Below, one piece after another: positions 1 through 56,379 of a stretch of 57,107 bases of DNA. This stretch comes from a virus (lineage: Duplodnaviria > Caudoviricetes), in IMG/VR virus record IMGVR_UViG_3300032046_000031, positions 1-57,107 of that record, one strand, 5' to 3'. The position numbers and the translations under genes were made by a program. Every line of letters starts with the position of its first letter. The stretch's first letter is position 1. The notes under the pieces were generated by a model, which searched no databases, was not told the origin of the DNA, and was given only the letters and a program-made list of their open reading frames with translations.

Positions 1-127
1 AATGCTTCGGCTCCACAAAAAGGACAAGGCTTTAATTTTTTCTCCTCAATCTCTTTCATTTTCCCTCCAATGCTTTAATGGCGATGTTTTGCATCTCTGT
101 CGCTTTATTGCTATTCACCACACTTTC
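1..127. repeat. Terminal direct repeat (copy 1), identical to 56981-57107; circular genome / assembly overlap
   Basis: Exact 127-nt identity between the two ends; reading frames run continuously across the junction (the stop of ORF 56..256 overlaps the ATG of ORF 56380..57039). Confidence 0.95.
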
Positions 128-256
128 TAGGGCCTGCTTTAATTTCTCAATCTCCTTATCCTTAGTTTCGAGAGAGAAAAGAAGTATTTGAATATGCTCA
201 TCCGCCCAAAGCTCTCCCTTACCCAATCTCTTCTTAATCTCCTCAATCTCTTTCAT
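56..256 (-). CDS. Small hypothetical coiled-coil protein
   Basis: ORF track; ATGA overlaps with both neighbours; SD GAAGGAG. Confidence 0.6.
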   Translation of the reverse strand: MKEIEEIKKRLGKGELWADEHIQILLFSLETKDKEIEKLKQALESVVNSNKATEMQNIAIKALEGK

Positions 257-540
257 TTTAACTCCTTCTCTCTTCTCTCCAATTCTTCTAACAATCGGGA
301 TACCAAGACCCTTAGAAAAAATAATGCAGTTTTTCTTTGATAAAATAAATGTATCATTTCAATAAAACTATTCGCTAATTCAAATCCTGCTTGTCCTGCC
401 CTAATGGTCTTAGACTGCTTAGTCTCGCCCATCTCATCCTCCTTCGCTCCCCACTCAATTAACTCCTTAGTTGTCCCTTTGATGATCTTGGTCATTTTGC
501 CTCCTACTCTAAATGTAAACCATGCTTTTCTCCATACCAT
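253..540 (-). CDS. Hypothetical protein (true start possibly at 434 or 495)
   Basis: ORF track; internal SD-ATG pairs. Confidence 0.5.
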   Translation of the reverse strand: MVWRKAWFTFRVGGKMTKIIKGTTKELIEWGAKEDEMGETKQSKTIRAGQAGFELANSFIEMIHLFYQRKTALFFLRVLVSRLLEELERREKELK

Positions 541-731
541 CCTTCCTCATCTATCCATTTTTTAATCTCTGCCAATTCTTCCCTCAATCTCTTCATTTTT
601 TCCTGTTCCCTTCGACATCCAGCAACATAACCATTTAGAAATGGCCCCCAATAACAACTCTTTTCAGGAGTCTTGCGATCTGTTACAAAAACCTTTCTTG
701 CTTCTTTTTCCCATCTCTCTTGGTCTGTCAT
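504..731 (-). CDS. Hypothetical protein
   Basis: ORF with SD AAGGAGGA upstream. Confidence 0.6.
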   Translation of the reverse strand: MTDQERWEKEARKVFVTDRKTPEKSCYWGPFLNGYVAGCRREQEKMKRLREELAEIKKWIDEEGWYGEKHGLHLE

Positions 732-784
732 CTCAATCCTCCTTTTAGGCGATAGAGGGAAATCCGGTCGATGTCATCCCTCTA

Positions 785-958
785 TTATGGTTTGATATTT
801 TTCAAATTTAAAATTGTTATTCCTGAAATCCTGTCTGTTGCAGGATTATAACGGATCAAAACCGGAATATTCTTTTCATAGCAAATCGCAGGCTCCGCCT
901 TATCAAATGTTAAATAAAGCACATCAGCATGTTCATCATAATCACAAGTTACCCTCAT
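785..958 (-). CDS. DUF2283-like small protein
   Basis: Motif YDEHADVLYLTF...IRYNPATDRISGITIL is typical of DUF2283; start moved to MRVTCDY after SD GGAAGGA. Confidence 0.7.
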   Translation of the reverse strand: MRVTCDYDEHADVLYLTFDKAEPAICYEKNIPVLIRYNPATDRISGITILNLKNIKP

Positions 959-1457
959 ATTTAATCCTTCCCCCCGTACTTGTTTTTCCAATCAGCATAA
1001 TTTTACGAACTATATTGGGATACCTTTCAATATTGATTCCGACTTTTGCCATCGTTTCAAAGACATTGATCCCACAGGCTTCAGGGATCTCCAAAATTGT
1101 ATCTCCATGCTTATAAACAGCAAGAGCTTTTTTATTAAGTTTACTCCTTACTCCGTTCTGCCAATATAAAGGATTTCTGCATTGCCGATCTGTCCATAGT
1201 GGATGGAGTTGTTTCATCTTTTTTTTATGACCGACCAAATCAAATTCTTCGATTACTGCATACCAATGAGTCCACACTTTAGAGCTATCAAGAAAATCGA
1301 AATATGTTGCAGGGCAGGCCGGAAAGTTTGGACAACCCTTCGGATGACCAGGATATGGCAGTTTACACCACATTCCATCTCTCGCCCTTAAGTCGTAAAC
1401 CACTTTAGTAAGTTTAATCGCTTCTTCGACTTTATCGTGACCAAATAAATCTTTCAT
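942..1457 (-). CDS. DUF2284-like predicted metal-binding protein
   Basis: CKLPYPGHPKGCPNFPACP and PEACGINV motifs; start at MKDLFG (the longer track ORF runs into cassette A and is probably spurious). Confidence 0.65.
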   Translation of the reverse strand: MKDLFGHDKVEEAIKLTKVVYDLRARDGMWCKLPYPGHPKGCPNFPACPATYFDFLDSSKVWTHWYAVIEEFDLVGHKKKMKQLHPLWTDRQCRNPLYWQNGVRSKLNKKALAVYKHGDTILEIPEACGINVFETMAKVGINIERYPNIVRKIMLIGKTSTGGRIKYEGNL

Positions 1458-1485
1458 TTCACCGCCTGAATCCGTATATCTCTTG

Positions 1486-1677
1486 TTATATGGATTCATA
1501 TTCACTTCCATCGGCCCAGTATCCAAGTTCCATCGCCAGCAGTTCACAGATACAGACAAACGCTGGCTGTCCACATTCACAAATCGGATCGGGTTCGTCA
1601 TCTTGTTCCATTGCTCTGGTATTTTCATCAAACTGAGCTTTTAGTAATTCTTCTTTTGAGGGCCAGCGATTAAGCAT
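1486..1677 (-). CDS. Cassette A cargo: small Cys-rich protein (ICECGQPAFVCIC)
   Basis: SD GGAGG adjacent to the inverse core site; stop TAA lies in the GTTA core site at 1485. Confidence 0.7.
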   Translation of the reverse strand: MLNRWPSKEELLKAQFDENTRAMEQDDEPDPICECGQPAFVCICELLAMELGYWADGSEYESI

Positions 1678-1689
1678 AATAAAACCTCC

Positions 1690-1744
1690 ATATAACCAAT
1701 CAATCCAGCGGATCGCTATGCTCCCGCTGATTTCTACGTTATGC
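1690..1744 (+). repeat. attC site 1
   Basis: ATATAAC-CAATCAATCCAGCGGATCGCTATGCTCCCGCTGATTTCTAC-GTTATGC; imperfect palindrome of the classic attC type. Confidence 0.85.
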
Positions 1745-1879
1745 GAAAAGATATTCTTCCATCAATGCCCTTTCTTCGGCATTGTATCCACCTGGATATT
1801 CCCCTGTTTGTTCAAAATACTGGAGATCTCTTTGAAGCGTTGGTGAATCTATTTTTTCACACAATTCTTGATAATTCAT
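1739..1879 (-). CDS. Cassette B cargo: 46-aa acidic peptide MNYQELCEKIDSPTLQRDLQYFEQTGEYPGGYNAEERALMEEYLFA (not in ORF track)
   Basis: SD GGAGGTGA; stop TAA in the core site at 1738. Confidence 0.7.
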   Translation of the reverse strand: MNYQELCEKIDSPTLQRDLQYFEQTGEYPGGYNAEERALMEEYLFA

Positions 1880-1894
1880 GCTATCACCTCCTTC

Positions 1895-1978
1895 ACATAA
1901 CAAATTACTCAAGCCGACCGTGGATAGTCAGTTGCTATTCCATCCACAGTAGACAGCGGCTTAGTTCAGTCGTTATAT
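1895..1978 (+). repeat. attC site 2
   Basis: ACATAAC-AAATTACTCAAGCCGACC...GCGGCTTAGTTCAGTC-GTTATAT; closely resembles aadA-type attC (TAACAATTCATTCAAGCCGAC...GCGGCTTAATTCAAGCGTTA). Confidence 0.9.
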
Positions 1979-2203
1979 TTCCGCTTCCCAATTTGCTCTC
2001 TTTTTAATTTCCTCCTCGATTAATGGAAGAATCTTTTTGAGTTCTGCTATTCTTTGTTCAAAATGGGCAAGTAATCCATTGCCATCAATTAAAGCCTTTC
2101 TCCAGCCATCTAAGGTAAGATATCCATATTGATCTCTGGGCCAATGCCAACTATAATGCCACGATGAATCAATGATATTTGATAATTCATACTCTAAATC
2201 CAT
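1973..2203 (-). CDS. Cassette C cargo: 76-aa hypothetical protein (MDLEYELSNII...)
   Basis: SD GGAGGA; stop in the core site at 1972. Confidence 0.7.
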   Translation of the reverse strand: MDLEYELSNIIDSSWHYSWHWPRDQYGYLTLDGWRKALIDGNGLLAHFEQRIAELKKILPLIEEEIKKRANWEAEI

Positions 2204-2223
2204 TTCATCCTCCTGAAGTAGAA

Positions 2224-2306
2224 ATATAACCAATCACTCAAGATAAATCCCATCGCCTGAATATCCCCTTATCAGGGCAAAATGGTTTGTTAATCAATGG
2301 TTAGAC
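2224..2306 (+). repeat. attC site 3
   Basis: ATATAAC-CAATCACTCAAG...GCCTGA-loop-TCAGGGC...TTAATCAATG-GTTAGAC. Confidence 0.8.
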
Positions 2307-2426
2307 GGAATAACAAAAATCCCAACAAATTTCTTTGTGCCCAATAACTTCGCATTTATTTCTATGAAAAATATAGACACCTTCTGTTGAAGTTTGAGCT
2401 TGCCAAATAAAAGAGTAAAATAACAT
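2301..2426 (-). CDS. Cassette D cargo: 41-aa peptide (MLFYSFIWQAQ...)
   Basis: SD GGAGGA overlapping the inverse core site; stop in the core site at 2300. Confidence 0.6.
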   Translation of the reverse strand: MLFYSFIWQAQTSTEGVYIFHRNKCEVIGHKEICWDFCYSV

Positions 2427-2435
2427 AAATCCTCC

Positions 2436-2528
2436 GTCTAACAAATCACTCAAGAAAATCCTTTCAACTTCTTCGTCTCTGTTTAGCATATCAACTCCTT
2501 TCGCCGCTGCGTAGTTCAAGCGTTGTAA
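2436..2528 (+). repeat. attC site 4 (central stem degenerate)
   Basis: GTCTAAC-AAATCACTCAAG...GCGTAGTTCAAGC-GTTGTAA; the outer boxes are recognisable but central pairing is poor. Confidence 0.7.
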
Positions 2529-2739
2529 GGCTTACTTTTCCAGTCTCTGTTTTCGTGCTTCTAAGTCGGTGCCTGTCATTTTCTACCTCCATAAATTTGA
2601 TTAAAACTTTTCCCTTCCTCCTCACAGAGAGGGCAACTTGGAGCCCAATCTCTTCTCCCTGGCTGTCCCCTCCACATTTGGAGTTGCCAGATTAGACCAC
2701 AGCAAGACCATTCCATAAAGCAGAATCGATAGTAGGAGT

Positions 2740-2943
2740 TCATTCTTCTATCGCTTCCCCTGCAACACCTGTGATAGGTCGATTTCGATAGAAGTCTCGT
2801 TCTTCCCAAGTCTTAGAGAGACATTGAGCGTGCTGTTGTTTAAATTCATCAACTAAGACAACGACTTTGTCAGTTGATTCCGCAAATGGATCACCTTCAA
2901 CATTGAGAGTTGCTCCACAAACGCAATGATATGAAATTTTCAT
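2740..2943 (-). CDS. Small protein with CxCG motif
   Basis: SD AAGGAGGTGA; MKISYHCVCG...HAQC. Confidence 0.6.
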   Translation of the reverse strand: MKISYHCVCGATLNVEGDPFAESTDKVVVLVDEFKQQHAQCLSKTWEERDFYRNRPITGVAGEAIEE

Positions 2944-3001
2944 CTGGATTCACCTCCTTTCCTTTATTTAATCTGACCAAATATTTGATTGATCCTTGCC
3001 A

Positions 3002-4327
3002 TCATCCCCCCTCAAGTTTCTTCTTACTCTCCAACCACCATACATCATCAATCTCTACCCCAACTGCCAACCTGTCTAATTGTTTACAGGCAAGGGTGAA
3101 AGTCCCTCCCCCAAGAAAGGGATCAATCCCTCTCTCCTTCACTTGTGAGCAATTCTCAATCAGTTTCTTAATGATGGTAAGAGGCTTCTCTGTTGGATGA
3201 ACCTTTGTCTGCCCTGAAAGGATTGGATGCTCAAACGTTGAGAGTGCCTGAATGGTAGAAAGGGGACGAGGTGGATACCCCTTACTACAATAAAAGATTG
3301 GCTCATAATTGACAGGATAGGAGATGTGAGGTCTAAGGTTGAGAGCATTGTTCTTGATCCATAGGAGGGGAGTTGGGCATACCCAGAACCCAACTTCTTC
3401 TAACAATGCTCTCACCTCAGTATAACGAGCAATGGCAAAGAAAACATAGCAGTGTGATCCCTGTACCAACACCCTATACACCTCCCTCATAACTGGTTTG
3501 ATTACATTCTCCAATACCTTCTTCTCATCATTAAATTCCATCCCCTGCCTAACCTCCCCTCTGTTTGGGAAGGTCTCCTGCATATCATGAATCCCAATCC
3601 CATAAGGAGGGTCGGTGATGCAGAAGTTGAAACTCTCATCTGGAAACTTTGGCAGTTCAATGAGGGAGTCTCCTTTAATGATCTGAATAGGTTCCTCCCC
3701 ACTTTCCAACCTTGCCTCAGCAAATATCCCTGCAATGTCCCTCATAAACCCCAACTCAAACCCAACCTTCATTGCTCTTATTGCAGCTTCCTTCGTCTCT
3801 TTCTTTCCCAACTCTGGGTCGAGTCTGAGAGCCTTTGCAAGTTGGAGATGCTCTCTGATCGTCCCAAGCCCCTCACCAAGGAGTTCAGCAGTATCCTGTG
3901 TCCTCCATCCTCCAGACTTCTTCCCTGTCCATGTGATGTTACCAATTCGCTCTCTTGTCGTTCCGAATTTTTCTTGATAGAGTTCATGAAGTTGAAGCTC
4001 TCCTTCAACCTTTTCCTGCCAGGTTAAGTCTTCTCTGTGGATGTTCTCATAGATCTCAATAGCAAGTCTCTGCCAAAGATCAAGGTTTTCTTTGAGAATA
4101 TACTCTTTCTCAGTTAATTCTTCTTTACCAATCTCTTTGAGTGCTCGAAGTCGTCTTTCACCAACAAGAAGATATATTCCATCATCTCTCTTTTCAAGAA
4201 TTAATGGTTCAATGAGACCAACCTCTTTAATCGAATTAATCAACTCTTGATGTTTCTTCTCATCAAAGGTCTTTCGTCTGCGATCTGGGTCGATGATGAT
4301 GTCTGAGATCTTAATTTTGTCTGTCAC
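3002..4327 (-). CDS. ParB/Srx N-terminal domain fused to an N6A/N4C DNA methyltransferase (beta class)
   Basis: LINSIKEVGLIEPL...LVGERRLRA...ENIHREDL (ParB-N); TDPPYG, HPTEKP and DPFLGGGT MTase motifs; GTG start with GGAGG SD. Confidence 0.9.
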   Translation of the reverse strand: MTDKIKISDIIIDPDRRRKTFDEKKHQELINSIKEVGLIEPLILEKRDDGIYLLVGERRLRALKEIGKEELTEKEYILKENLDLWQRLAIEIYENIHREDLTWQEKVEGELQLHELYQEKFGTTRERIGNITWTGKKSGGWRTQDTAELLGEGLGTIREHLQLAKALRLDPELGKKETKEAAIRAMKVGFELGFMRDIAGIFAEARLESGEEPIQIIKGDSLIELPKFPDESFNFCITDPPYGIGIHDMQETFPNRGEVRQGMEFNDEKKVLENVIKPVMREVYRVLVQGSHCYVFFAIARYTEVRALLEEVGFWVCPTPLLWIKNNALNLRPHISYPVNYEPIFYCSKGYPPRPLSTIQALSTFEHPILSGQTKVHPTEKPLTIIKKLIENCSQVKERGIDPFLGGGTFTLACKQLDRLAVGVEIDDVWWLESKKKLEGG

Positions 4328-4649
4328 GCTTGGCCCCTCCTTTAGGTTCAACCTTTGCTGGAGGTGTTTGAGGAGGAGTGGTTTGCTTAAAGAGATCCCA
4401 CTTAGCAATCTCATTGATCATAGTTTGCTGGCAGGCATTAAAGAGGGTTTGTTTTCTTAACTCTTTCTCATTCTTTGGCATGATGAGATTGATGTGGGTG
4501 TCAATGGTTTCTGTAATCATCTGTTTCTGCTTTCCAATAGTAATGCCACCAACGAAGCCAGCAGAGACACCAGAAATAAAAATACAAATAATCCAGATAA
4601 GAAGATGATAACTTAATTCAGTTTTCTTTGGTGTTTGTTCTTCACTCAT
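4311..4649 (-). CDS. Hypothetical membrane-anchored protein
   Basis: One hydrophobic N-terminal segment; SD GGAGG. Confidence 0.6.
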   Translation of the reverse strand: MSEEQTPKKTELSYHLLIWIICIFISGVSAGFVGGITIGKQKQMITETIDTHINLIMPKNEKELRKQTLFNACQQTMINEIAKWDLFKQTTPPQTPPAKVEPKGGAKRDRQN

Positions 4650-4650
4650 C

Positions 4651-4977
4651 TTACCCTCCTATCCTACTAATAAATTTTAATGCCTCAATTGATGTTACAA
4701 TCTCGATTCCATTCTCCAAAGCAAATTTACACTCTGTGATTGCTCCCTCACTTTCACCAGCTAAGAGAAATAAAACATCACAACAGCTAAGCCATTTAAG
4801 ATCCATCTTCATCCAGAACTCTTTTGGATGATGATGAAAAAGATGCCAGAAATGAAAGAGATGTGGAACGAATGGAATATGCCCAAGGTTGGCGATTTTA
4901 TCTGCAACTTCAATCACCCTCTTGACATTACAGGCAACATCCCCTTTTGTGTAAGGACCAGTAATATAGACTTTCAT
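4651..4977 (-). CDS. DUF4406 / nucleoside 2-deoxyribosyltransferase-like protein
   Basis: KVYITGPYT...PFVPH...WLSCCD...GESEGAITE motif. Confidence 0.75.
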   Translation of the reverse strand: MKVYITGPYTKGDVACNVKRVIEVADKIANLGHIPFVPHLFHFWHLFHHHPKEFWMKMDLKWLSCCDVLFLLAGESEGAITECKFALENGIEIVTSIEALKFISRIGG

Positions 4978-5611
4978 GCTACTACCCCTCCTGGATTATT
5001 CCCACCTTTAATTGGTCTCACATTACTGAGATCCCTTGCAGGAACTATCCCTGTTGTAGCTTGGATGTAAAGGTTGATAAGACTTTCATCTTTTACATCA
5101 TACATTAGATGTCTTAAAGCAGGGTTGAGCTGCTCAATCTTATCAGGGGTTCCTACGAGAGCTTTAAGCCCCATCACTTCTCTCCCCTGAGAATCTTGAC
5201 CTGAAATTACAACTCTTGGTTTCTGTAAAATCTCATCTTCATACTGCCCAATAAGGATAAGACCACCGATGAAGATTATTTTAAGTTCCATTATAGGATT
5301 AACCTCCTTCCAATCTGCTATTGTTAGAGCAACTGCTTCATCCCAAATTTTTCTTCTTCTGGCATCACCCATCTTATCCTTCTTTCCGAATCCAAAAAGC
5401 TGGGTATAGAGTTTTACCATCTCCAATATAGTGTGTTACAAAATCAAGGGAAACATGCTGTCCTAAAAACCTTACAGATAACCATTGCATTACCCCAGTT
5501 TCCTCAATGGTCTCTGGATGGAGAATAACACAGCCAGGCGTAATGGAATCAATTTTCATCTCAACCTCCTTTATAATAAAATTGAGAGACCAACAGAGAG
5601 AGCTAAATTGT

Positions 5612-5920
5612 TTACAGAATGCCTTCTGGAATCTCTACACCAGCCTTCTTGAGAGTCTCTGCGAGTCTTGCTTGCAGTTCTGGCGTGAGCTTCCCAGTAG
5701 CCTTTGCAGCGATGATCATCTTTCCAATTGACAGAGCACCTGTAGCAGGTTTTCTCAACTTATTGATTGCATTTGTCTTCCACTGGGCATTGAAAACTGC
5801 AAGAGCCTCCTTCTCTCCCCCAGCGAGTTTCTGGCAATCTGCCCAGGTGTCTGCTTGCTTGCATGTTCCTTTCTGATCTGGTTGCCCCTTACTCTTGGCA
5901 ACGATCTGTTCGTCTTTCAT
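5612..5920 (-). CDS. Hypothetical protein (true start MKDEQIV)
   Basis: SD AAAGGAGGA; the upstream extension in the ORF track overlaps a structured RNA. Confidence 0.7.
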   Translation of the reverse strand: MKDEQIVAKSKGQPDQKGTCKQADTWADCQKLAGGEKEALAVFNAQWKTNAINKLRKPATGALSIGKMIIAAKATGKLTPELQARLAETLKKAGVEIPEGIL

Positions 5921-5999
5921 AGAGTTAGTTCCTCCTTTAAATGCTGAAGTTACGTTGAAAGTTAAAGTGGTCTCTCTGTTAATCTCTCTCAAGTTAAGG

Positions 6000-6107
6000 C
6001 TGTCTCGTTGAAGGATTCGAACCTTCTTTGCTATGGCAGTAGTCCTGATGCAGCTCTCCATAGTCTCGTTGCCTCAAGTGTTTTCACCAGAACACCACAC
6101 GAGACAG
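6000..6107 (-). ncRNA. tRNA-like RNA (acceptor-like stem, D-arm and T-arm; no canonical anticodon arm)
   Basis: CTGTCTCGT/ACGAGACAG closing stem; GTGTT-CTGGTGAA-AACAC D-like arm; GAAGG-TTCGAAT-CCTTC T-arm. Confidence 0.55.
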
Positions 6108-6116
6108 TAATTTATA

Positions 6117-6149
6117 CTGAGTATAGGTCGAACTTCGACCTTAGCTGAC
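6117..6149. promoter_or_regulatory. Dispersed palindrome copy 1 (CTGAGTAT-AGGTCG-aactt-CGACCT)
   Basis: One of six intergenic or gene-end copies. Confidence 0.75.
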
Positions 6150-6653
6150 CATTCCTCCTCCACCTCTCTTCTTTGTAATAATTCTGACACGATTGTCCTT
6201 GATGGGTTCAGGATCATTCTCTGTTCCCTTTCGGGTTACCTGATCAACCTTTACCACCAATGGTCTCCCCTGAAATACCTCCTTATCAGGAAGCTGTGTT
6301 CCTTGGATCTGCATCCCCGTTCCACTGATTATATTGACGATGGTGAATGTGGCTGTATAATCCCACTGTTTGGTATCAGGATCAATCCACGGTAGTTGTG
6401 CATATACGAACAGATTGCGATTCCCCTTTACTTCAAGGTCAGGTCTGTTTATGATCCTTAAGGTAAATTTCCACTGAGGTCTTCCTGACTGTTGGACAGG
6501 TGAATCATCAACCTTATCAATCACCGTTTCATAGGTTCCATCAGGAACCAACGGTGGCCTTGCTAACTTCTCCAAATCTTCAAACCCTATTCCGATGTCT
6601 ATTGGGCACATATTCTCTTTCCTCCTTTTCTCTTTCAGATTTTTCAAACTCAT
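6141..6653 (-). CDS. DUF669-like single-stranded DNA-binding (OB-fold) protein; probable start MCPIDIG
   Basis: PLVPDGTYETVIDKV...SGRPQWKFTLRI pattern; located near the Sak4-like ATPase. Confidence 0.65.
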   Translation of the reverse strand: MSLKNLKEKRRKENMCPIDIGIGFEDLEKLARPPLVPDGTYETVIDKVDDSPVQQSGRPQWKFTLRIINRPDLEVKGNRNLFVYAQLPWIDPDTKQWDYTATFTIVNIISGTGMQIQGTQLPDKEVFQGRPLVVKVDQVTRKGTENDPEPIKDNRVRIITKKRGGGGMVS

Positions 6654-6959
6654 CTTTCTCCTCAGCCCTCAACTGCCCTGATGATTTCCCATCCATTCTG
6701 ATGATGGGAGCACCACAGGGACATTTGTTTCTTACAATGGTTGAGGGTGCTGGGAAGTGTCCATTGCTGCACTCAAACTCACTCACAAGGTCACCTCCTT
6801 TCTCATCTCAGCTTCTCCATCTCCCCTTTGATGTGTCTCTCTTCCTTCCTTAAGCTCTCCAACTTCTTCTCCTCCTCCTCGATTGCATCCTGATAGCCTT
6901 CAAGGAGCTTCTGCCAATATTCTAAGGCTTCTGTTCTCTTCATCCTTCCTCACCTCCCT

Positions 6960-7811
6960 TCACTCACAGGACATTTGACCTCTGTAAATCTCTGCAAAGT
7001 TTGGTTTGATCTTGATTGGCAGGTCATCAAACGATCTCTGCCTGATGATCTTCAAGAACATCTGCGGAGAAGTCTCAAACCAATATTCCTTCTTCCCTGT
7101 CATCGTTGACACTGAAACATAGTAGATGTCATCGATCATACTTAATACGATCCCAGGAAGTTTCTTCCCATAGAGTAAGATGGTCTCCTGAATCTTCCCA
7201 ACAATCTCATCCTTCTCTGACTCAACATGGGTAGTAAGGATGAAATCAAAAGGGATGTGACAGCAGACATCTACAATCTCTCTGATCTTCTCAATAGCCA
7301 ACCCATAAGTATATTGGCTGGTTCCTTTCCCTGTATGTCCTGCAAGGTTGACCTCTCCGTGTAAAACATACCATTGTAACCCAGTAAGGGAATCCGCTGC
7401 AAAGTGGCACACCCCTCTCTCCTTATACGCTGCCACCTTACTTTCCATATCATTAATGTCCTGTGCAAAATCAAAGAAGATTTTAGAATCAAAAGAGGTA
7501 AGCATTCCAACGTTGAGAGGGGTTGCATATTCAGAGTAGTCAATAACCAAAATCTCATCCTTCTTCAAGATGTCATCCTTCTGTGCAAACCACTCTCTGG
7601 ATGTTTTGTAATGTTTAAGCTTCTTCGGTCTCCTTCCAACTTTCTGTGCTTTGAGTAAGGCATCTCCTTCCCTCTCTAAACATTTCCAACCCCCAGAGTC
7701 AAAATTGAAATCTATTAGACCTCCTGATAATGTCTCAAAACTTGTGGTTTTGCCACCTCCTGGCTCACCAATCAGAACTATATTTTTTTTACTCATCTTT
7801 TTACCTCCCAA
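6960..7811 (-). CDS. AAA_24 / Sak4-like recombination ATPase
   Basis: Walker A GEPGGGKTT, DFNFDSG, ADSLT and ILTTH motifs. Confidence 0.75.
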   Translation of the reverse strand: MGGKKMSKKNIVLIGEPGGGKTTSFETLSGGLIDFNFDSGGWKCLEREGDALLKAQKVGRRPKKLKHYKTSREWFAQKDDILKKDEILVIDYSEYATPLNVGMLTSFDSKIFFDFAQDINDMESKVAAYKERGVCHFAADSLTGLQWYVLHGEVNLAGHTGKGTSQYTYGLAIEKIREIVDVCCHIPFDFILTTHVESEKDEIVGKIQETILLYGKKLPGIVLSMIDDIYYVSVSTMTGKKEYWFETSPQMFLKIIRQRSFDDLPIKIKPNFAEIYRGQMSCE

Positions 7812-8007
7812 TGTCTTGATAGATCAGCAAGAACATGAGCTACCGCATCTGTGATTCTTTCAAGAGCAATTGTAGTAGCAGGGATGTACTGACTGATTAT
7901 TTTGTAAGCATCATTTACTGCTTTAAGTTTTACCATCTCTTGCTCTGCTATAAATGCTTGTGTTTTTAAATAAGCAATTTGATCCTCTAACTGTTTAATT
8001 GTCTTTT

Positions 8008-8223
8008 TCATTTCTCTCCTCCTTTCTTCTTATCTGATCGCCAATGTGCAGATCCCCAAGGTCTTTCCTTTGGTCTGTTTGAGTATGACATGAGGGGTAT
8101 CTTGGTTATGATCTTAAACGCACCCATCCTACAGTTTGGGCATTGGCATACTGTTTCTGTTGATGATGTAACTTCTTCAAATTGATGATGACAACTTTCA
8201 CATTCCCAATCATAGAGGGGCAT
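8008..8223 (-). CDS. FmdB-family zinc-ribbon protein
   Basis: MPLYDWECESCHHQFE...CPNC signature. Confidence 0.85.
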   Translation of the reverse strand: MPLYDWECESCHHQFEEVTSSTETVCQCPNCRMGAFKIITKIPLMSYSNRPKERPWGSAHWRSDKKKGGEK

Positions 8224-9337
8224 CTTCCAACTCCTCTCCTGGTATCTCTGATGGATCTGCTTTTAATGGTTCTAAGATCATTTCCATTTTTGTTAAGGCA
8301 TCTTTCCAGTTAGTTGTGGAGACCGAGATTCTTGGATCTATATAAATCCAACATTCAGTCTCTATTTTTCCAGATGAATATTCTACCAGTTCGTATCTGA
8401 TTGCATGATACTTTCCTTTTGCTAACTTCTTTAACTCATCCTTTGCCTCTTTAAATGTCATTTGCTTTCTCCTTTCTTCCTTCCCTCCTTATGGATCACC
8501 GTCAACTCATGGGAGTCTGTCCAATAAACTGATTTCTTTTTCCCTGTTGGTTCATGAGCAAGAAAGTCTTTAGTGAGAAATTCCTTGATCATTCTTGCAA
8601 GGGTCGTCTTAAAATCACCTTCAAACTTGATGATCGTTCTTAGGTATTTCATCTCTTTCTCCTTCCTAACTAAGAAAAGGCTTCTCTGAGTTGGGATCTT
8701 TGAATTCAAACCTTCCTTCCATCACCTTTCCCTCTTCCAATCCCAATGACCGTCTCAACTCCTCTGCAAACTCATCGAGGGTATTCTTTTGTTTTGGCTG
8801 CACTAACATCCATCCCTTCCTCACCCCCAGTGACCCAAAGATATGATGGTTGATCGCAACCAGATTCCACCAGAGATCCCAGAGCATTATTATCGATGGG
8901 CATGATGATGCCAACACCTTCGTACAATTCTTATCTGTTGGGATGAGTTGGTAGAGGAATCTCTCTTCCTCACTGAGGGTATCTCCCAGAATGACATCCC
9001 CAGTTTGCATCTCATGCCCTGGTTCAGATGGATGTGCCATGACATCCTTTATACATTCCTCCCCAATGAAGGTAGTAACGAGATCGATCCACATCTCTCT
9101 ACGTCTCTTGGTCATATCAGTCATCTTGTACCTCCACAATCTTTTGATCATCTGGGTGCTGAACAATCAGATTCCCCTTGGTCTGTTGTGCCCCCATTAA
9201 GAGAGCAGCCCCAAACAGTTGCCATTCTCCAACATCCATGATTAGAGTTCCTGTTAGTTTAAGATGATCTTCATCCTCACCTATAAAGACTCTTGTATGG
9301 ATGTGAGGACCTCTTCTTTCATCCCTTAATTTAATTA

Positions 9338-10279
9338 TCATTCATCCTCCTCCTTCTCCTCCCCCACTCCAACGTAGGGCACCCATGCCTTTACCTCATA
9401 AATCCCTGCTGCCAGGAGAGGTTGCAATATGCTCTCTGGATCTTGTGCAAGGCAAAGGTCGAGATACTGACATTTCCCCCTGTATGCTGTACAATAGTGA
9501 GGACTATGTTTCACCCATATGTTGCGAGAGGTAGAATCCTCAATCTGATGAATTGTCTGCAACACTTCCTTCTTCCACTGTTCCAATTCGATTGGTGACC
9601 GAGAGGTTGGCATCCTGACAAAAGTCTCTCTCTGTTTCTTTGCATACACCAGCTTTCCTGACTTTCCCATAACCTTTGGCACCGATTTATCAATCTCTTC
9701 ATCCGTAGCATACACCCCAATCCCATTGATCATATATCCCAGGATATTCTCATAGACTTGATTGAGATAGTAGATGTACCCAGTGATCTGATTGTTTGGT
9801 TTAACGAGTAGGCGGTGAAGGGAAGAGGTAGTCTTATGATCAAATCCATAAACCCCTTTTGGGTTTGCCCATTCAACAACTAAATCTAATCTAACAGTAT
9901 AAAGGTACTCTCCAATCTCACAGGCACCACCAACTTCTGGATCAATTACGTTAAAAGGCTCATGACGATATCTAAGAAAGTAGTTTGAAAGTATCTCCAA
10001 CCCTTTCCCAACCGTTCTCTTCTCATCCATATCATGTTTGTAGTTGTTGGTGAATATCTCAAGAGCTTCTACAATAGCTTGGTCGGTCATCCCTTCCTTA
10101 TAGTAATGTTCCAGTGATTGATGGATGCAAGAGCCAAAGTCAGCTGCGACCTTAATATCACCTGCTTTGATGATCTGTTTAGCTATTCGATAGTGGTAGT
10201 ATTCCTCGCAGTTACGGTAGCAGTCAAGAGCATAATTATCCCAGGTCTTTGATTCTAACCCAATAGCAACTTGATTCAT
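9338..10279 (-). CDS. PD-(D/E)XK (Cas4/RecB-like) exonuclease
   Basis: YRNCEEYY, FGSCIHQSLE, RLDLVV...FDHKT and C-terminal C..Y.GKCQYLDLC. Confidence 0.8.
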   Translation of the reverse strand: MNQVAIGLESKTWDNYALDCYRNCEEYYHYRIAKQIIKAGDIKVAADFGSCIHQSLEHYYKEGMTDQAIVEALEIFTNNYKHDMDEKRTVGKGLEILSNYFLRYRHEPFNVIDPEVGGACEIGEYLYTVRLDLVVEWANPKGVYGFDHKTTSSLHRLLVKPNNQITGYIYYLNQVYENILGYMINGIGVYATDEEIDKSVPKVMGKSGKLVYAKKQRETFVRMPTSRSPIELEQWKKEVLQTIHQIEDSTSRNIWVKHSPHYCTAYRGKCQYLDLCLAQDPESILQPLLAAGIYEVKAWVPYVGVGEEKEEDE

Positions 10280-12185
10280 TCTTCCTCCTTATAATTATTG
10301 ACAGCCTTAACAATAAATTCAGCATCTTCTTCTGAGAGGATAGCACCAGTCTCATCTGATCCAATAACAGTAATTGGGTTATCTTTACTTCCTGCACTTA
10401 CAAATTGATCACAGTATTCTCCATGAAACAGTTCGTAATCATACTGGCATTCTGGTGGTCCTGGATGATGCATCTCATGTGATTTGATATGACATCTACC
10501 TTCCCAACTTCCAATAAACCAAGGTAGTGGTGTATGTTTCATCTTTCCTCCTCTGCCAACCATCCCTCTTTCATCTTTCCATAAAGTTCTTCAATCTCTT
10601 TTTTAAACTCTGAAGTTGTTTCCTTATCAGCTTCACCCTCATGCCATTCAAATTCATGAGCACCACAAAGAGGGCAGTATTTAGAGTCATCCTCCATAGT
10701 TAATCTTCCTTTCCTTCTGCCAGACCTGCCTCCGATAATATATTAAACATCTCCTCCAGTGTCTCTTTACTGCGACCTTTCAGCAACGCATCAAGAGACT
10801 TCTTCTTTCTCTTTGGCTGTGCAAATACGATTTGTCTCTGTTCATTAACCACCTGAATAAGGAGGGATGGGAGAAGTTTCTCCTGTTCATCTGCGAGTTT
10901 GACACAGTCTGAAAGAGGAAGCTTCTCCCACTGTTTGGGAGGGGCATCTAACTTCTTTGCGATCACCTCTTTCTCACCCACCTCTTTCACAACATAGAGA
11001 AGGTCTGCGAGAGGGGTGATGAGAAAGATGAGACATCCTTTTTTAAGTTCCTGATTCACTAACCAATTCCCTTACATCTTTCTGTTTAATTGTAACCAAC
11101 GCACCACAATTTCCCCCAACCCACCTTTCATCCTCAACTTCAATCTCTCCTTCAAGATTGAGGCAGGAGCATGGTCTAATGAATTCCAACTGTGAATCTT
11201 TCAAGGTCATAAAGATTGTTGAACATTCTGAGCATCTAAAATTAACCAAAAAGTGATTGCTCATCTCTAAGATGACTTCCTGTAAGGTCATTTTGGAGTC
11301 TCCTCCAACCCAATCTCCCCCAGATTTTTGATCTCTCTTGCTACTGCTATTCGACCAAAGAAATCATCACCTGTAGCAACAACATCTTTAAATTGGACCT
11401 TTATACAAACAAGACTATATTTGGTAGATTCTTCTGAACTATTCATTTGAAGCCATCTAAGGATTGGTTCCTTATTTAAAGCACAGTGGAATCCTGTTGT
11501 ATATTTATCCCCCCTACCAATTGTTTCATTTGATTGATCTTTAATCCAACAGTCTTTTAGATATTCTACCATCCATTGTCTATGCGTGCAATCCCAGCAG
11601 AAATATCTTCTCTTCTCTCCTTCACCCTTTACTGCTACCAACTTATAACCAATGTCAGTATTAATAGATGGAGTTGGATCAACCTTATCTAAGCACATAA
11701 TAATCTCCTTTCCTTGAGATATTTATTTAGGATTCCCCTTCTGACTGGTGGTTGGTTTCCTCTGCAGAATGGTCTTCATCATTGTCCCTTTCATCTCTCC
11801 TGTTGTAATTACATAATAGAGAACAGCTTTCCCATCATACCTTATCCTTAACTTTTTAAGGGCAAGGTCATAATCACCTGGTTGAATTCTCACCTTCTTT
11901 GGTTTATCCATCTATCTCAGCCTCCTTAACTGCTTCAATTATCGCTTGATTTCCATCACTATCTGGATAAGCAATACCAAGATTGTATCCATGATCCTCT
12001 GATGCCCAGATCCAAACCCCTTTGCACCCAGAAGGAATGATCGTAATAACCACCCCTGCTGGTCCATCAGTCTGGGTGTATGCTGTGATCTTTTTCAGTT
12101 TCATTTCCCCTCCATCCTGTGACAAGTGTGTTACAACCATATGGAACCTTAGATTGGATTGCATACTCACCTGCAACCAATCTAT

Positions 12186-12210
12186 AGGTCGAAGTGTGAC
12201 CTTTACTCAG
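12186..12210. promoter_or_regulatory. Dispersed palindrome copy 2 (AGGTCG-aagtg-TGACCT-TTACTCAG)
   Basis: Matches the consensus of the other five copies. Confidence 0.75.
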
Positions 12211-12356
12211 CAAAACAGACCTGAGAGGAATGTGAAGAGTGACGCTGAGATTGATTACCACCGTACAATAATCATTCTCGTATGGTCTTTAATCTTGTCA
12301 TCCCTCTCAGATCAAAGTAGGATAATAAATGATAAAGTCCGCCATTTATAACTTTA

Positions 12357-12386
12357 ATATTAACATGGACTTATTCCTTTTGTCAA
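12357..12386 (-). promoter_or_regulatory. Sigma70-type promoter with an upstream T/A tract and an IHF-like box at 12415-12427
   Basis: TTGACA-N18-TAATAT with extended TG; intergenic. Confidence 0.65.
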
Positions 12387-12468
12387 GAAAAAAATGTGTA
12401 AGATTTCCCTTTAATTTCAATAAGTTAAAAGGTTTTTTAAGAATGATAACTTTAGCCATTTCCTTTTA

Positions 12469-12873
12469 TTAATGTTTTAAAAATTCAACAATCTTTGGCT
12501 CTAACAAAAGATGCCCTTTTTCTGCATTACATTGATGGCAACAAGAAATTAGATTCTCTTCTGTTGAAGTTCCTCCTTTGCTAAGAGGAATGATGTGATC
12601 AACAATAAGGGAAACATTTGGATCTGTATGTGGTGACTTTCCACAATAATGACATCGGAATCCATCGCTTGCAAAAATTAAAAAAGTAGGAATGAAACCA
12701 TCTCTAACTTTTTTAGTTGCCTTTTCTGCACATTTGGGTGAGCAATATTTACGAGATTTTGAATTAGATAAAAATTGTTTTTTACAAATTGGACAAATAG
12801 GTATAATATCCAATGGAATCATGGCTTCTTTTTCTATTTCAAATGTAACACTTGTATAATCTCTTTTTGACAT
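12469..12873 (-). CDS. HNH endonuclease with an N-terminal zinc finger
   Basis: CPICKK...YCSPKC; DGFRCHYCG...DHIIPLSKGG...NLISCCHQCN. Confidence 0.9.
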   Translation of the reverse strand: MSKRDYTSVTFEIEKEAMIPLDIIPICPICKKQFLSNSKSRKYCSPKCAEKATKKVRDGFIPTFLIFASDGFRCHYCGKSPHTDPNVSLIVDHIIPLSKGGTSTEENLISCCHQCNAEKGHLLLEPKIVEFLKH

Positions 12874-15385
12874 CTTTATATCTCCCTCTTATAATCACAT
12901 CCTAAGATCAACGTATCCTCATCTTCAATCTCTTCACAAGGATGATCTCTACAAGAAAGACAAAACTCTTGTTTTACTTCAGTTTTCATTTCCTTTTGTT
13001 TCCTTCCTTACCACCTTACTCACCCTCTTAAACCAGTTGAGTGAGTTAAATCTCCCTCCCTGAGTATAAGCAGAGAGAAACTTCTGACACCAGAAATGTG
13101 AGCTGTAATAGGTGTAATCAACCCCTCCAACCTTGACCTTAATCAGATTGGGATATTCATAACTTATCAAAGAGAGTTGTTTCATATTCACCTCCCAAGA
13201 ATCCAGATGAGGGCAAATGCAACTGTCAACCCAACACAAAACCAAGTCGTTCTCTCAACTACTTTAAACATTATGATTCACCTCCTCTCCTTTCTCAAAT
13301 GGGATCAGAAGAAAGCAAAGGATGCACAGCCATCCTCTGATTGAGACAATCATACTCTGTCTCCCTTTACACTTAGGATTGGGACAGTCTTTAAAGCGAT
13401 CCATCTTTGATCTCCTCTCCTTCCTCCAAGAATCTAAAATCTGAATTGCAAGTAGTATTTCTTGCAGAACAGATCGGGCAAAGCACACTTAACATTTGAA
13501 CAGCCTCAAATTTCGATATAACATTAAGGGATGCTTGTCGGTGAATAAAAAGATATAGTAAAGTAAATCTTTTTTCATAGGGTAAAAGCATTTTTCTGGT
13601 TGACATATTAACCTCCTTTCAATTTTAATCACAGTAAATACAACATTCTGCTATCCCTTCATCCCAAATTATGTATCTTGCTTCCACCCATTGATGACAT
13701 CTGGGACACCTGATTAAACCTGCAATCATATTTTTAACATCAGTGATGTGACCCATCTCTCCTCCTCCTCACCACCTTCTCACTCACCTTCTCCACAGGT
13801 CTCCAAGGTTTGAGAGGTTCGATGGTGACTTCTATTGTAACTCTCTCTTTCTTCTCTGTCAGTATCAATGACGCTGTATAAAGGTCTTCATGTTGGTACT
13901 TCCATCCGATGGTTTTGGGTTTCATCTTATCCTTTCTCTTCATCATTATTATATAAATCTATTACTGTTGCAATCGCTTCCATTATAAGGTCTGGATCAG
14001 GTGCAGCAGGATAAGTTGAATCTAAATAGTTCTGAGCAATATCTCGAATTCTTCTAAAATAATCATCGATTGACATTAATCTCACCCCCCAACCAATCTG
14101 CTTTTTCATCTTACCTCCTACTTAACAGAGACAACAACCCCATCCTTCATCTCAACCTGTGCGTACCATGTGTGAGGTGCTGGATAGTGTAGACCTTCCA
14201 CAAATTCTCTTCCATTTTCTTGTGGCTGTCCTAATCCTGGAGCATAAAGTCTAACTTTATCTCCTTTTTGGACAGCCTCTTTAAGAGCCTTCTTGGTCTT
14301 GAAATTGGTTTCTGTATACATGATTTCACCCCCCCTTCCATCCTATCCTTTTTGGTTTCATCTTAACTTCCTCAATCTGGAAGCCTTTCTGCTCTTCCAT
14401 TGGTGAATCTATAATTAACTGTCTCCTCTGATGGAAGCACCTTTGTCTCCTTCACTGCCATCCACCTTGAGGAGAGATCGTTCCCATAATCCTCTGCCTC
14501 TTTCTCTGTCTCAAAACAGAGTGCATTAGAGATAAATTCGGTGTCACCTGCTGTCTTAACTCCAAGTTTGAATCCCATCTTTCTCCCTCCTTTCTTATTT
14601 TCTGTAAAGGTTCAACCCTAAATGGATGTCTGAATGATCTGGGATTGAAACATTCCCTGCTGTGGTTGCGATGATTGCTGACTTCCCTGATTTTGAACGA
14701 TCAAATTCCTTTGTCAGATTGATAGTAATGATAAGATTCTCACTCCCATCATTCTCCTTAACTACAACCAGATTGATGTTCTGCATACTATCTCACCCCC
14801 CTTCCATCATCTGTTTTAATTCTTCTTGTAACTCTATTGGCAAACTCTCCCAAAACTTCTCTTTTTTTGTTTGTTTCTTTCCCTTACCCTTAGATTGTCT
14901 CCTTGTCGAAGGATCTGCCTTCCATCCTCTCACCCCTGCCCCTCTTGTATCTACAAGGATGTGTGCAAATGAGCATTTGGGATACGGCCAGTCCCATCTG
15001 CAGTATTCACATCCCTGTCTTGGATAGTAAGCACATTCATATAATAACTTCTTATCAACTTTGTGACCATGACGTTGAAACTCTTTGATGTAAGGTAAAC
15101 GGGTGGAGATGTGAGGGGGTGGGCCAGAGATGGTATGGTCTTTCATCTGTGTCTCCTAATTTGTAAGAGTTAATGTAACTTCAATTCCAAGCTCCTTTGC
15201 AAGTAAGGGAGCTAACTCTTCCCTATCTTTCTGCGTGAGATTTTTAAGTTCTGCGATAAATTGACCTAACTTTTGATCTGGAAGTAACTCAAAATACTTT
15301 TTATAAGCAACAGCAAAGGATATTTTGTCTGTCATCTTATTCACCACCTTTCCTAACTGGCTTATTTTTCCATCTTGACACCTTA

Positions 15386-15414
15386 AATATAGCATAAAGA
15401 AAAAGGAATGTCAA
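15386..15414 (-). promoter_or_regulatory. Sigma70-type promoter; IHF-like box at 15443-15455
   Basis: TTGACA-N17-TATATT with extended TG. Confidence 0.75.
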
Positions 15415-15500
15415 GAAAAAAATGCATTGAAAATGCCTATACTTTCAAAGACTTAGAAGATTTCCGAAAATAGTCAAAATTGTCTTAAAAAGGAAACAAT

Positions 15501-15959
15501 TTACTCCGATCCTTCATTTACAATCTCAAATGGATCTTTCTCTGGGATGTAGACTTTACTCTCAGCCTTCTCTTCTGCTCTAAGGAAATCTCCCCACTCT
15601 TCTTTCTTCTTTTCTGGTACGAGTTTTATTGGTGCTTCTTTTTGTGGGGACAAATACCATTGTTTTAAACTTGAATTTGTTGCTCTAAGAAAAGGATCAT
15701 CTTTATCAAAAGGTTTCTTAATAACCTTTTTATCTATCGGTGATTTCATCCATCCAATCTCTATTTCAAATCCTATCATTTGTAAGAGAAGAAAACTTTC
15801 TCTTTGTTGTTTAGATAATCTGCCATTTGCATACTTTGCTTCAATCAATTTAACTCTTCCACCTTTACAGGCAATAAAATCTGGCCAAGCTATCTTAAAC
15901 ACCTGCCATCCCTCTTTTTCATACTGACCTTTGATTAATCTCTCACTTGCTGTTAGCAT
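15501..15959 (-). CDS. VRR-NUC-like PD-(D/E)XK nuclease / resolvase-like protein
   Basis: WPDFIAC...LIEAK...GRLSKQQ motif. Confidence 0.7.
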   Translation of the reverse strand: MLTASERLIKGQYEKEGWQVFKIAWPDFIACKGGRVKLIEAKYANGRLSKQQRESFLLLQMIGFEIEIGWMKSPIDKKVIKKPFDKDDPFLRATNSSLKQWYLSPQKEAPIKLVPEKKKEEWGDFLRAEEKAESKVYIPEKDPFEIVNEGSE

Positions 15960-52857: not shown

Positions 52858-53177
52858 GATCTACCTCTTCATCACTCTTAACTGCATCCCAGAGACCTTA
52901 GAGTAGAACTGCCAATTTTCGTGCCTCTTCTTCTGTTCCTCTTTCACCATCAACTCATACTCAAAATCATCTGACCTCCCACACTTTATGCAGACACCAT
53001 CAACGATAGGGCTCTGGCAGAAGATGCAGATGTGGTGAGAGGTCTCCCAGAAATCAATCAGTCTAAGCAGGGCATAGTGAGAGTCAAACCCTCGACACCT
53101 GCAAAAATCCTCAAACCTACGATTGGACTCGGTGAGATAGTCTCCATTTCTCATTTTTCCCTCCTCTTTAACAAAAG

Positions 53178-53202
53178 CTCAGTATAGGTCGGTTTTCGAC
53201 CT
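53178..53202. promoter_or_regulatory. Dispersed palindrome copy 6 (CTCAGTAT-AGGTCG-gtttt-CGACCT)
   Basis: At the 3' end of ORF 53179..53385. Confidence 0.75.
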
Positions 53203-53511
53203 AAATGCAGCTTTCTTCAATTCTTGGTATTGTCTCCTTCTCCCAGTACAAATAACCTGCCCCTTTTCATCTACTTCATAGATGCGTTCTCTTTGGGAGA
53301 AATCCTTTCCATAGACCTTTTTTCTAAGACTCTTAACCTTACGTTGATTCACTTCTTCCACCTCCTTCCTCTTTAATATAGACATCTTTTGGATGGAGAT
53401 AGATCTTCTTTATCCGCCCAAAAATATAACGGAACGGATTAAACCATCTCCTATAAATTCTCATTTGAAAAGATGCTCCATATATGAGTTGGTCAAAATA
53501 ACATTTATAAT

Positions 53512-55881: not shown

Positions 55882-55991
55882 AGTTTGCTTTGCACCTTAT
55901 ATGAAAGTAACTACCTGATACAGGAGTTGGGTGCTTTGATCGTAAGCGTTTAACGATTATTATTGTTATCTTTTTTATATTTCCTTGATCA

Positions 55992-56222
55992 TCAAGAGTT
56001 TCTTTTACTCGTAGATCTCTGTCTCTTTGACTTCTCGTGGTTTAGTTCCTTGTTTGTTGATTCTTTTATCAACTCTTTCTCTTTTCCCTCTTTGATGAAA
56101 TTCCTTACTGCACATCGTAGGATGTGGGAGATTTGCCCAAAGGGATAGTTTCCAACTAGTAAATATTTATCAAGTTCTTCTCTTTCACTTTTTGTAAGCT
56201 CAACTCTAAGAACGAGATTCAT
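55992..56222 (-). CDS. Ribbon-helix-helix-like DNA-binding protein
   Basis: LVLRVELT...ELDKY...ISHILRCAVRNFI pattern. Confidence 0.5.
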   Translation of the reverse strand: MNLVLRVELTKSEREELDKYLLVGNYPFGQISHILRCAVRNFIKEGKEKELIKESTNKELNHEKSKRQRSTSKRNS

Positions 56223-56379
56223 CTTTCCTCCTTTCCTCTCTCCCGTCTTGCAATTAGGATTGAAAGGTTATTATATTATCTTTTTATCCCCTATTGTTTC
56301 TATCTTAAAACATTTTAATTCCATATGTTGTCCACAATGAGGACATCTTAAAAATAATTGAACAAATGGTTGAAGTTGG

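Follow-up and report, generated by a model that had tools for sequence, protein, structure and literature searches.

A cluster of four inverted, mobile attC cassettes in the genome of a tailed bacteriophage

Results

A four-cassette array with inverted open reading frames

The virus record IMGVR_UViG_3300032046_000031 (Duplodnaviria; Caudoviricetes), a complete viral record whose 57,107 bases were analysed at full length and are called the window below, carries near its left end an array of four integron-type gene cassettes, each composed of a small open reading frame (ORF) on the - strand and an attC recombination site on the + strand (Table 1). An initial annotation, made from the letters alone, had described four cargo ORFs of 63, 46, 76 and 41 amino acids (aa) on the - strand, each with a GGAGG Shine-Dalgarno (SD) sequence next to the inverse core site and a TAA stop formed by the GTTA of the core site. 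Sequence and ORF list agree with it on each of these points. It had also placed the array at 1486-2442; the four cassettes stand, whereas the right end has to be moved, as the array runs to 2522, or to 2528 with the whole of the last site.

The crossover G of the five core sites lies at 1485, 1738, 1972, 2300 and 2522, and the TTA that follows each of the first four reads, on the other strand, as the TAA stop of the right-hand ORF. Each cassette therefore begins with the stop codon of its ORF, which fills it from the first base. At its other end, each of ORF1-ORF4 starts beside the R'' box of its own attC: GGAGG stands 5-8 nt upstream of the ATG in all four cases and the SD 0-12 nt from the inverse core (..TAAC). 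Extended inverted repeats flank each ORF, matching at 9/9, 7/8, 10/10 and 10/10 letters in cassettes 1-4 (GTTATATGG/CCATATAAC, GTTATGCG/CACATAAC, GTTATATTTC/GAAATATAAC around ORF3, and GTTAGACGGA/TCCGTCTAAC, respectively), and they represent the R''/R' pairing expected of a circularised cassette.

Scored with the codon usage of the phage, all four - strand ORFs were positive and the best of the six frames (0.13-0.29, the coding windows of the phage giving 0.285 +/- 0.105), and the + strand ORFs 1490..1636 and 1741..2007 scored -0.24 and -0.19, i.e. as non-coding. ORF1, ORF2 and ORF3 have homologues elsewhere and are therefore real genes. For ORF4, the start of the longer form at 2489 falls inside attC site 4, whose interior may be coding.

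Table 1. Coordinates of the array and of the adjoining backbone in the window.
Feature	Position	Strand	Description
Left junction	1485..1493	+	core-type site G/TTATATGG, no attC to the left; cassette 1 inserted or lost here
Cassette 1, 253 nt	1486..1738		inverted ORF1 + attC site 1
ORF1, 63 aa	1486..1677	-	four invariant Cys (C-x-C...C-x-C)
attC site 1, 55 nt	1690..1744	+	29.0 bits, E 1.1e-4
Cassette 2, 234 nt	1739..1972		inverted ORF2 + attC site 2
ORF2, 46 aa	1739..1879	-	
attC site 2, 84 nt	1895..1978	+	52.2 bits, E 2.4e-10; best site; aadA/Xanthomonadales-like L box
Cassette 3, 328 nt	1973..2300		inverted ORF3 + attC site 3
ORF3, 76 aa	1973..2203	-	uncharacterised small-protein family, WHYSWHW motif
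attC site 3, 83 nt	2224..2306	+	15.8 bits, E 0.19; weak
Cassette 4, 222 nt	2301..2522		inverted ORF4 + degenerate attC site 4
ORF4	2301..2489	-	41 aa from ATG at 2426 (strong SD) or 62 aa from ATG at 2489
attC site 4, 93 nt	2436..2528	+	26.0 bits, E 6.2e-4; ends attC-like, interior pairs poorly
Backbone gene left of array	942..1457	-	171-aa phage protein, weak DUF2284-like match
Backbone right of array	2532..2743	-	55-aa conserved gene 2576..2743 and overlapping 15-aa ORF 2532..2579

Identity and strand of the attC sites

The sites were identified with a covariance model, R1, purpose-built from 14 cellular attCs (11 of Vibrio maritimus, the others of Nitrosomonas eutropha, a Thermoplasmatota metagenome-assembled genome (MAG) and a Calditrichaceae MAG). 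R1 thus holds bacterial and archaeal sites only, is distinct from the model of IntegronFinder, and misses some of the attC types found in two phage contigs discussed below, L180 and L177. Run on both strands of the window, it returned exactly four matches, all on the + strand and all at the predicted places, and no - strand match at E<=10. In the positive control, 5.5 kb of plasmid R100 with its class 1 integron region, the single match was the aadA1 attC (13475-13534, 47.2 bits), found on aadA1's own strand directly after its stop. The resemblance of site 2 to aadA-type attCs, already proposed from the sequence, is borne out by its higher score in the same model and by the L-box letters that its alignment has in common with that of the aadA1 site. 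In the R1 alignment, site 2 also has both unpaired top-strand bases, C and A.

The four sites are contained within 840 nt, each is bounded by TAAC ... GTT, and each is an imperfect palindrome running from ..AAC to GTT.. within the ~55-140 nt range of attCs. Their cores, which read ATATAAC / GTTATGC and similar, depart from the strict RYYYAAC/GTTRRRY consensus; a strict RYYYAAC...GTTRRRY regular expression missed all four (cores ATATAAC/GTTATxx) and was rejected as a site finder. A 16-nt R''-L'' motif derived from the window's own sites occurs four times for 0.78 expected, a count reached by none of 100 shuffles. In public collections the same motif recovered clear attC arrays in V. maritimus (L053), Vibrio cholerae (L023), N. 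eutropha (L125) and an archaeal MAG (L030); most single matches there are chance hits, and matches were kept only with a matching 3' half. The 3' half of site 3 is 88.7% identical to a site in L180. An Rfam search of positions 1-6000 returned nothing relevant, and site 2 matched no plasmid by blastn.

When folded, the - strand of either site 1 or site 2 forms an R box and, beyond a 5x5 unpaired spacer, an L stem whose 3' arm carries a bulged G; the fold of site 2 (-12.5 kcal/mol, z -3.79) was equalled by none of 200 shuffles. A pattern of extrahelical bases making the - strand the top strand had been named as the observation that would overturn the inversion. Instead, the 3' arm of the - strand carries the extra base, the arrangement of a canonical bottom strand. 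The position of this bulge, the strand of the R1 matches together with the control, the breakpoints of shared cassettes and a natural deletion joint (both described below) establish that the + strand is the attC top strand, on which the sites had been read as canonical, and that the - strand is at once the recombinogenic bottom strand and the coding strand. The cassettes are inverted.

Searches of the complete record with TIGR02249 and PF00589 gave 0 matches, hence no tyrosine recombinase or integron integrase. The locus thus has four close attC sites and no integron integrase in the complete 57-kb record, as in a cluster of attC sites lacking integron integrases (CALIN); a complete integron is not present, as the integrase is missing and the left neighbour is an unrelated 171-aa phage protein. 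Since the phage has no integrase, the four-cassette region is a CALIN of inverted cassettes.

Mobility and natural turnover of the cassettes

Cassette 1 recurs with 253/253 identical positions in a metagenome contig, L187, between flanks that are unrelated on both sides. The identity spans G1485-T1740, and the sequences diverge at G/TT on either side. A 231-nt counterpart of cassette 4, 95.7% identical and beginning at TTAGACGGA, the TT after the G, lies in phage contig L180, which is the start of a viral contig of 66 kb. The shared units are thus ORF1 with site 1 and ORF4 with site 4; as the inverted reading predicts, each ORF moves together with the attC beside its start and not with the one beyond its stop.

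Parts of 700-3300 are present in seven public runs, and the contigs of four of them (X2-X5) were compared over 1-4500. In contigs of X2, X3 and X5, position 1484 is followed immediately by 1738; the 253 nt of the cassette are left out, and the joint has five shared letters (GTTAT). In X3, a single 1106-nt contig consists of 614-1484 followed by 1738-1902, and in X5 one contig consists of 1338-1484 followed by 1738-1975; further X2 contigs cover the remaining array and the backbone up to 4500. This joint and the start of the L187 identity at G1485 define the left junction. X3 additionally holds cassette 1 alone in other flanks, and X4 has an 18.3-kb L180-like contig with cassette 4. A joint from 1484 to 1972, skipping cassettes 1 and 2, was weakly indicated by one X2 contig with a 25-letter side. 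The borders, namely those of the L187 identity, the left border of cassette 4 in L180 and the 1484-1738 joint, all lie in GTT, with 3-9 ambiguous letters. One and the same phage thus occurs in forms that have or lack cassette 1, the difference being cassette-exact at + strand core sites, and the cassettes are mobile units.

The contig depth of site 2 (1801-1975) is several-fold above that of the backbone in X2-X5, with many loose ends at 1890-1907 and 1966; many further cassettes in these metagenomes therefore carry attCs of the site-2 type. Around the left junction, backbone positions 1467-1478 form a 12-nt inverted repeat (92% complementary) with the first bases of cassette 1 (1487-1498). 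It cannot form in the variant without cassette 1, and could be a chance match or what is left of the R'' of a lost attC.

Cargo of the cassettes

ORF1 belongs to a small family of proteins with four invariant cysteines, for which ten homologues were found at 65-92% identity. Its structure model (predicted local distance difference test score, pLDDT, 82.6) had no fold match in PDB or BFVD (best E 1.9). Among the ten loci with ORF1 relatives, five carry R1 matches, and 20/20 of these matches are on the strand opposite to ORF1. These arrays (L187, L189 and L191/L192) are mixed: ORF1 and other small ORFs are inverted, and the larger cassettes, encoding an acetoacetate decarboxylase family protein, HigB/HigA, ParE with its antitoxin, a methyltransferase and a hydrolase, are forward. 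The ORF1 homologues are thus not mostly ordinary forward cassettes, the other outcome named as overturning the inversion; they stand inverted among forward HigBA, ParE and decarboxylase cassettes, where they would be antisense to the integron cassette promoter Pc.

ORF2 has two homologues (75% and 70% identity), and the ORF3 family counts 67 representatives at E<=1e-3. A search with a seven-row ORF3 alignment found relatives in viral contigs and none in genome contigs, and an Atlas search with ORF3 gave no usable match. Relatives of ORF1 at L190 1211-1390 and L193 1364-1549, and of ORF3 at L435 2501-2719 (a viral contig), have no adjoining attC; these attC-free genes suit a study of the conversion of genes into cassettes. 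One cassette ORF in contig L164 is a member of the phage family phrog_419; in L002, a relative of the phage, a gene that is not part of a cassette shows 57% identity to it. From these comparisons, the cargo looks like ordinary small phage genes that circulate as cassettes too. No Pfam or PHROG family was found for ORF1-ORF4. As to the suggested anti-defence or host-takeover role, searches for families, folds and Atlas entries gave no match, and the neighbourhood alone points in this direction.

Two zinc-ribbon ORFs (..LSDLLCCPFCG..), which may be Lar-like, judged by their resemblance, have the R''-L'' motif in their 5' coding part (L177 ~1665-1690 and L180 ~4170-4192). The 62-aa form of ORF4 likewise reads FLSDLL through the R'' box of site 4, and its start context GGAGTTGATATG is common with the L180 ORF.

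Orientation of cassettes in viral and cellular contigs

Among 43 cellular R1 matches (two truncated matches being left out of the count), the adjoining ORF is forward in 38, inverted in four and cut by the contig edge in one; many of the forward ORFs stop within the TAAC of R''. The phage contigs L180 and L177, and contig L164, show the layout of the window, CAT, SD complement and R'', and every cassette read there is inverted. In L180 (2480-4200), a second attC type (..CAGC/CATC GGGTGGAG.. stems) is missed by R1; on the strand that does not encode the ORFs, its extra base is likewise in the 5' arm.

Orientation was then counted with an independent, strand-specific pattern of the aadA-type L box (TCAAGCCGAC..GCGGCTTA), applied to viral and cellular collections with ~120 stretches listed for each. 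At the level of sites, among the matches listed, 55 of 130 viral sites are inverted, 27 forward and 48 unclassifiable, and 5 of 178 cellular sites are inverted, 106 forward and 67 unclassifiable. Clustering the listed matches at 80% identity leaves 48 inverted and 25 forward viral clusters, as opposed to 3 and 97 cellular ones (Fisher p 1.6e-20). At the level of loci and with symmetric rules, the listed matches give 54 inverted and 9 forward for the viral collection and 6 and 45 for the cellular one when an SD is required, and 58/20 and 20/54 without the SD rule. Spot checks revealed the same CAT-SD-R'' layout. The inversion is thus not peculiar to this phage, an orientation bias being present across viral contigs. 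The initial suggestion of a phage-adapted class of cassettes gains support from this tally and from cargo families that also occur as attC-free phage genes.

Genomic setting of the array

The genes found in the record include those for terminase, portal protein, family-A DNA polymerase, primase, exonuclease and a Sak4-like protein, and the 127-nt terminal repeat resembles an assembly overlap. All ORFs of at least 120 aa in 942-15959 and 51550-57039 are on the - strand, except 3587..4027, which sits inside the methylase gene, and 14662..15027; the array is therefore part of a single leftward replication and accessory block that spans the ends of the record. In 700-3100, neither sigma-70-like promoter sites, the one promoter type scanned, nor terminator-like sites are enriched (6 found for 6.1 expected, and 2 for 1.6, respectively). 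No RNA run is on record among the public runs that hold the stretch.

On the left of the array, the 171-aa protein has a 52% identical homologue in viral contig L001, which has no attC. On the right, the 55-aa conserved gene shows 69% identity to its counterpart in the relative L005, and its stop is overlapped (ATGA) by the 15-aa ORF. The latter resembles the N-terminus of an ORF of the von Willebrand factor A (vWA)-like type in L005 (8619..9263) and, judged by this resemblance, may be the remnant of a gene lost from the phage. Truncation of a vWA-like gene by the array was considered and dropped, as the stop of the 15-aa ORF lies 10 nt before the junction. Neighbouring genes are of the anti-restriction type: a fusion of ParB with an N6/N4 DNA methyltransferase (3002..4414), and a nucleoside 2-deoxyribosyltransferase-like protein and a Lar-like restriction alleviation protein (4651-4977, 56380-57039). 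Further to the left, a hairpin (ATAGAGGGA / TCCCTCTAT, 738-790) stands directly before the SD in the 5' leader of ORF 504..731; it is 94% identical over 33 nt to a stretch within the L180 array (4098-4130) and is a second non-coding element common to the window and L180.

Discussion

Relation to known systems

Phage CALINs are already known: the 2023 paper in Front Microbiol (PMC9892861) reports 17 CALINs in 10,705 genomes and phage attCs that are usable by IntI1. As described there, these loci resemble the array studied here in having several attC sites, small cassettes, no integrase, and methyltransferase or anti-restriction genes nearby. The cassettes of phages TJE1 and PH101 are described in it as 'oriented in the same direction', and R1 finds no sites in TJE1. 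We found in it no antisense ORFs, no natural gain or loss of phage cassettes and no identical cassettes in phage and cellular-type arrays; its supplements may hold orientation data. This being the sole paper on phage attCs that we found, we know of no published account of the orientation rule or of the natural turnover, and what appears to be new here is the inverted ORFs, the natural cassette turnover and the cassettes in common with cellular-type arrays.

The In2 aadA1 cassette of plasmid R100 (NC_002134) is like site 2 in its G/TT crossover and its L-box letters, and in both R100 and the window the R'' box is complementary to the first bases of the cassette it belongs to. The aadA1 gene of R100 lies on the attC top strand, stops shortly before R'' and has intI1, attI and Pc beside it; in the window, the genes are on the bottom strand, and intI, attI and Pc are absent. 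The four ORFs therefore differ from the canonical integron cassette, whose ORF lies on the attC top strand and ends at or near R''. Sedentary chromosomal integrons do contain inverted or self-promoted cassettes, notably toxin-antitoxin cassettes with their own promoter, as outlined by Richard et al. 2024 (PMC13108822). Inverted ORFs form a minority of cellular cassettes (4/42 by R1 and 3/100 clusters by the pattern, among the matches listed): they are exceptions in forward arrays and need promoters of their own, whereas in the window the whole array is inverted, no promoter signal stands out, and the products are small phage-type proteins rather than toxin-antitoxin pairs. Finally, insertion at secondary attG (GWT) sites has been described for the E. 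coli and V. cholerae chromosomes, with no orientation bias relative to transcription or replication in the account of Loot et al. (bioRxiv 10.1101/2022.09.11.507474). The array starts at a bare G/TT with neither attC nor attI to its left, as an attC x attG insertion would leave it. Such insertion being unbiased, it does not explain the bias of the viral contigs, and selection or cassette formation must explain the inversion.

Proposed mechanism

We consider it probable that the locus is a CALIN of four inverted mobile cassettes in a tailed phage, served in trans by a host integrase and with its ORFs read from the leftward transcript. The acting enzyme, the transcription of the cassettes and the reason for their inversion are what we infer here. 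A host-encoded integron integrase, induced during infection, would act in trans on the folded - strand of the phage attCs, and single cassettes would be inserted or excised at the G/TT of the core sites. New cassettes may enter at the left junction, G1485 acting as an attI or as a secondary (attG-type, GWT) site; that the outermost cassette is both polymorphic and 100% identical elsewhere fits insertion at the left end. Without promoters of their own, the ORFs would be read from the leftward polycistronic transcript of the phage, each with its own SD, as their co-orientation with that block suggests.

Two reasons for the inversion are conceivable. In an array that took its orientation when it was founded, only inverted cassettes would be expressed; or the cassettes may be generated in phages, from genes lying beside an antisense attC, with the GTTA opposite a TAA-C stop serving as the second site. 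An antisense attC beside a gene and the GTTA given by its TAA-C stop might then suffice for the integrase to form a new cassette circle. More tentatively, and as a possibility rather than an expectation, phages may maintain a pool of mirror-configuration cassettes drawn from ordinary phage genes, which would be expressed only in phages and lie silent, antisense to Pc, in host integrons acting as exchange hubs or stores.

Points against this reading and rival explanations

Several observations weigh against the proposed mechanism. Sites 3 and 4 fold no better than shuffles, the fold of site 3 showing only the R box and the inner stem and site 4 not folding at all, and the score of site 3 reaches only E 0.19. 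Site 4 of the window and its L180 counterpart disagree over the final 15 nt, leaving the right border of cassette 4 unsharp. Contigs L188/L189 share 1485-1702 (ORF1 and R'') at 95.4% and then continue into a site-2-like attC, a break at R'' rather than R', which is compatible with exchange on the top strand or by homology and not with the simple model. Assembled contigs are the source of the deletion joint, and in X2 one of its sides is only 25 letters long. The search for a close relative with an empty site found none: L002-L005 lack attC and are syntenic but distant, with a neighbour protein 55-79% identical and differences throughout the interval from the ParB-methylase to the DNA polymerase. 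As for the orientation bias, the tally covers one attC type in ~120 stretches of each collection, with IMG/VR labels as given and a heuristic ORF call, and a first, smaller viral sample gave 11 inverted and 9 forward among 20 R1 matches.

Three other explanations have to be set beside these points. If the - strand were the true top strand, the array would consist of ordinary forward cassettes and the inversion would be a mis-call of a near-palindrome. The symmetric inverted repeats that flank the ORFs fit either strand, a stop inside a ..TAAC core is typical of forward cassettes too, and the L188/L189 breakpoint lies at R''. We nevertheless find this reading scarcely credible, given that R1 has no - strand match in the window while it picks the coding strand for aadA1, that the - strand has its bulged base in the 3' arm, that shared units never consist of an ORF and the site to its left, that both ends of the natural deletion are core Gs when the + strand is taken as top, and that the large bacterial cassettes of the mixed arrays are forward on the strand which R1 calls top. 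The hairpins could also be intergenic elements of the phage itself, such as transcript-stabilising, terminator or homologous-shuffling repeats, i.e. attC look-alikes without any integron integrase. Phage T4 offers a model, in its promoter-stem-loop modules, where an early promoter is joined to a stem-loop between small ORFs. The hairpins of the window do lie between small early-region genes, in an interval that varies among relatives from the ParB-methylase to the DNA polymerase, sites 3 and 4 are poor attCs, and most viral matches of the L-box pattern, among those listed, are single sites. Against this stand the 52 bits of site 2 in a model of cellular attCs, and the identical cassette in an array of the same attC type, related arrays carrying toxin-antitoxin and metabolic cassettes. 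The breakpoints at G/TT share 3-9 letters, too few for homologous recombination, and neither promoter-like nor terminator-like sites are enriched, so that with the one promoter type scanned the promoter of a T4-type module is not seen. Taken together, these data make look-alike hairpins very improbable.

Somewhat less remote, though still unlikely, is a passive relic, in which a piece of a bacterial array was acquired once by illegitimate or homologous recombination and is no longer visited by an integrase, its inversion being due to chance. In its favour are the absence of an integrase from the phage, the degenerate state of sites 3 and 4, and section 3.4 of PMC9892861, which proposes this very route, the capture of a piece of a bacterial cassette array, for phage CALINs. 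A single passive acquisition is difficult to reconcile with the presence and absence of cassette 1, with cassette-exact borders, in one phage lineage across four runs, or with its 100% identity elsewhere. Neither would chance account easily for the inversion of 4/4 cassettes here and of all those read in L177, L164 and L180, as compared with ~5-10% in cellular arrays, and the cargo families have phage homologues without attC.

Significance

Integrons are seen as bacterial stores of defence and resistance genes, and phage attCs have so far been read as stray pieces. Here, a phage of the virulent type carries a working array that gains and loses cassettes in nature, one and the same cassette is shared by a phage and arrays of bacterial type, and phage-borne attC sites mostly face opposite to the bacterial rule. 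If a mirror pool exists, the phage accessory genes stored in it might include anti-defence genes, and it would offer a natural, observable case of cassette genesis, which is an open question in integron biology. If the orientation bias holds, it would point to a separate cassette pool on the phage side, and the birth of cassettes and the use of a host integrase by phages to swap accessory genes would both become testable.

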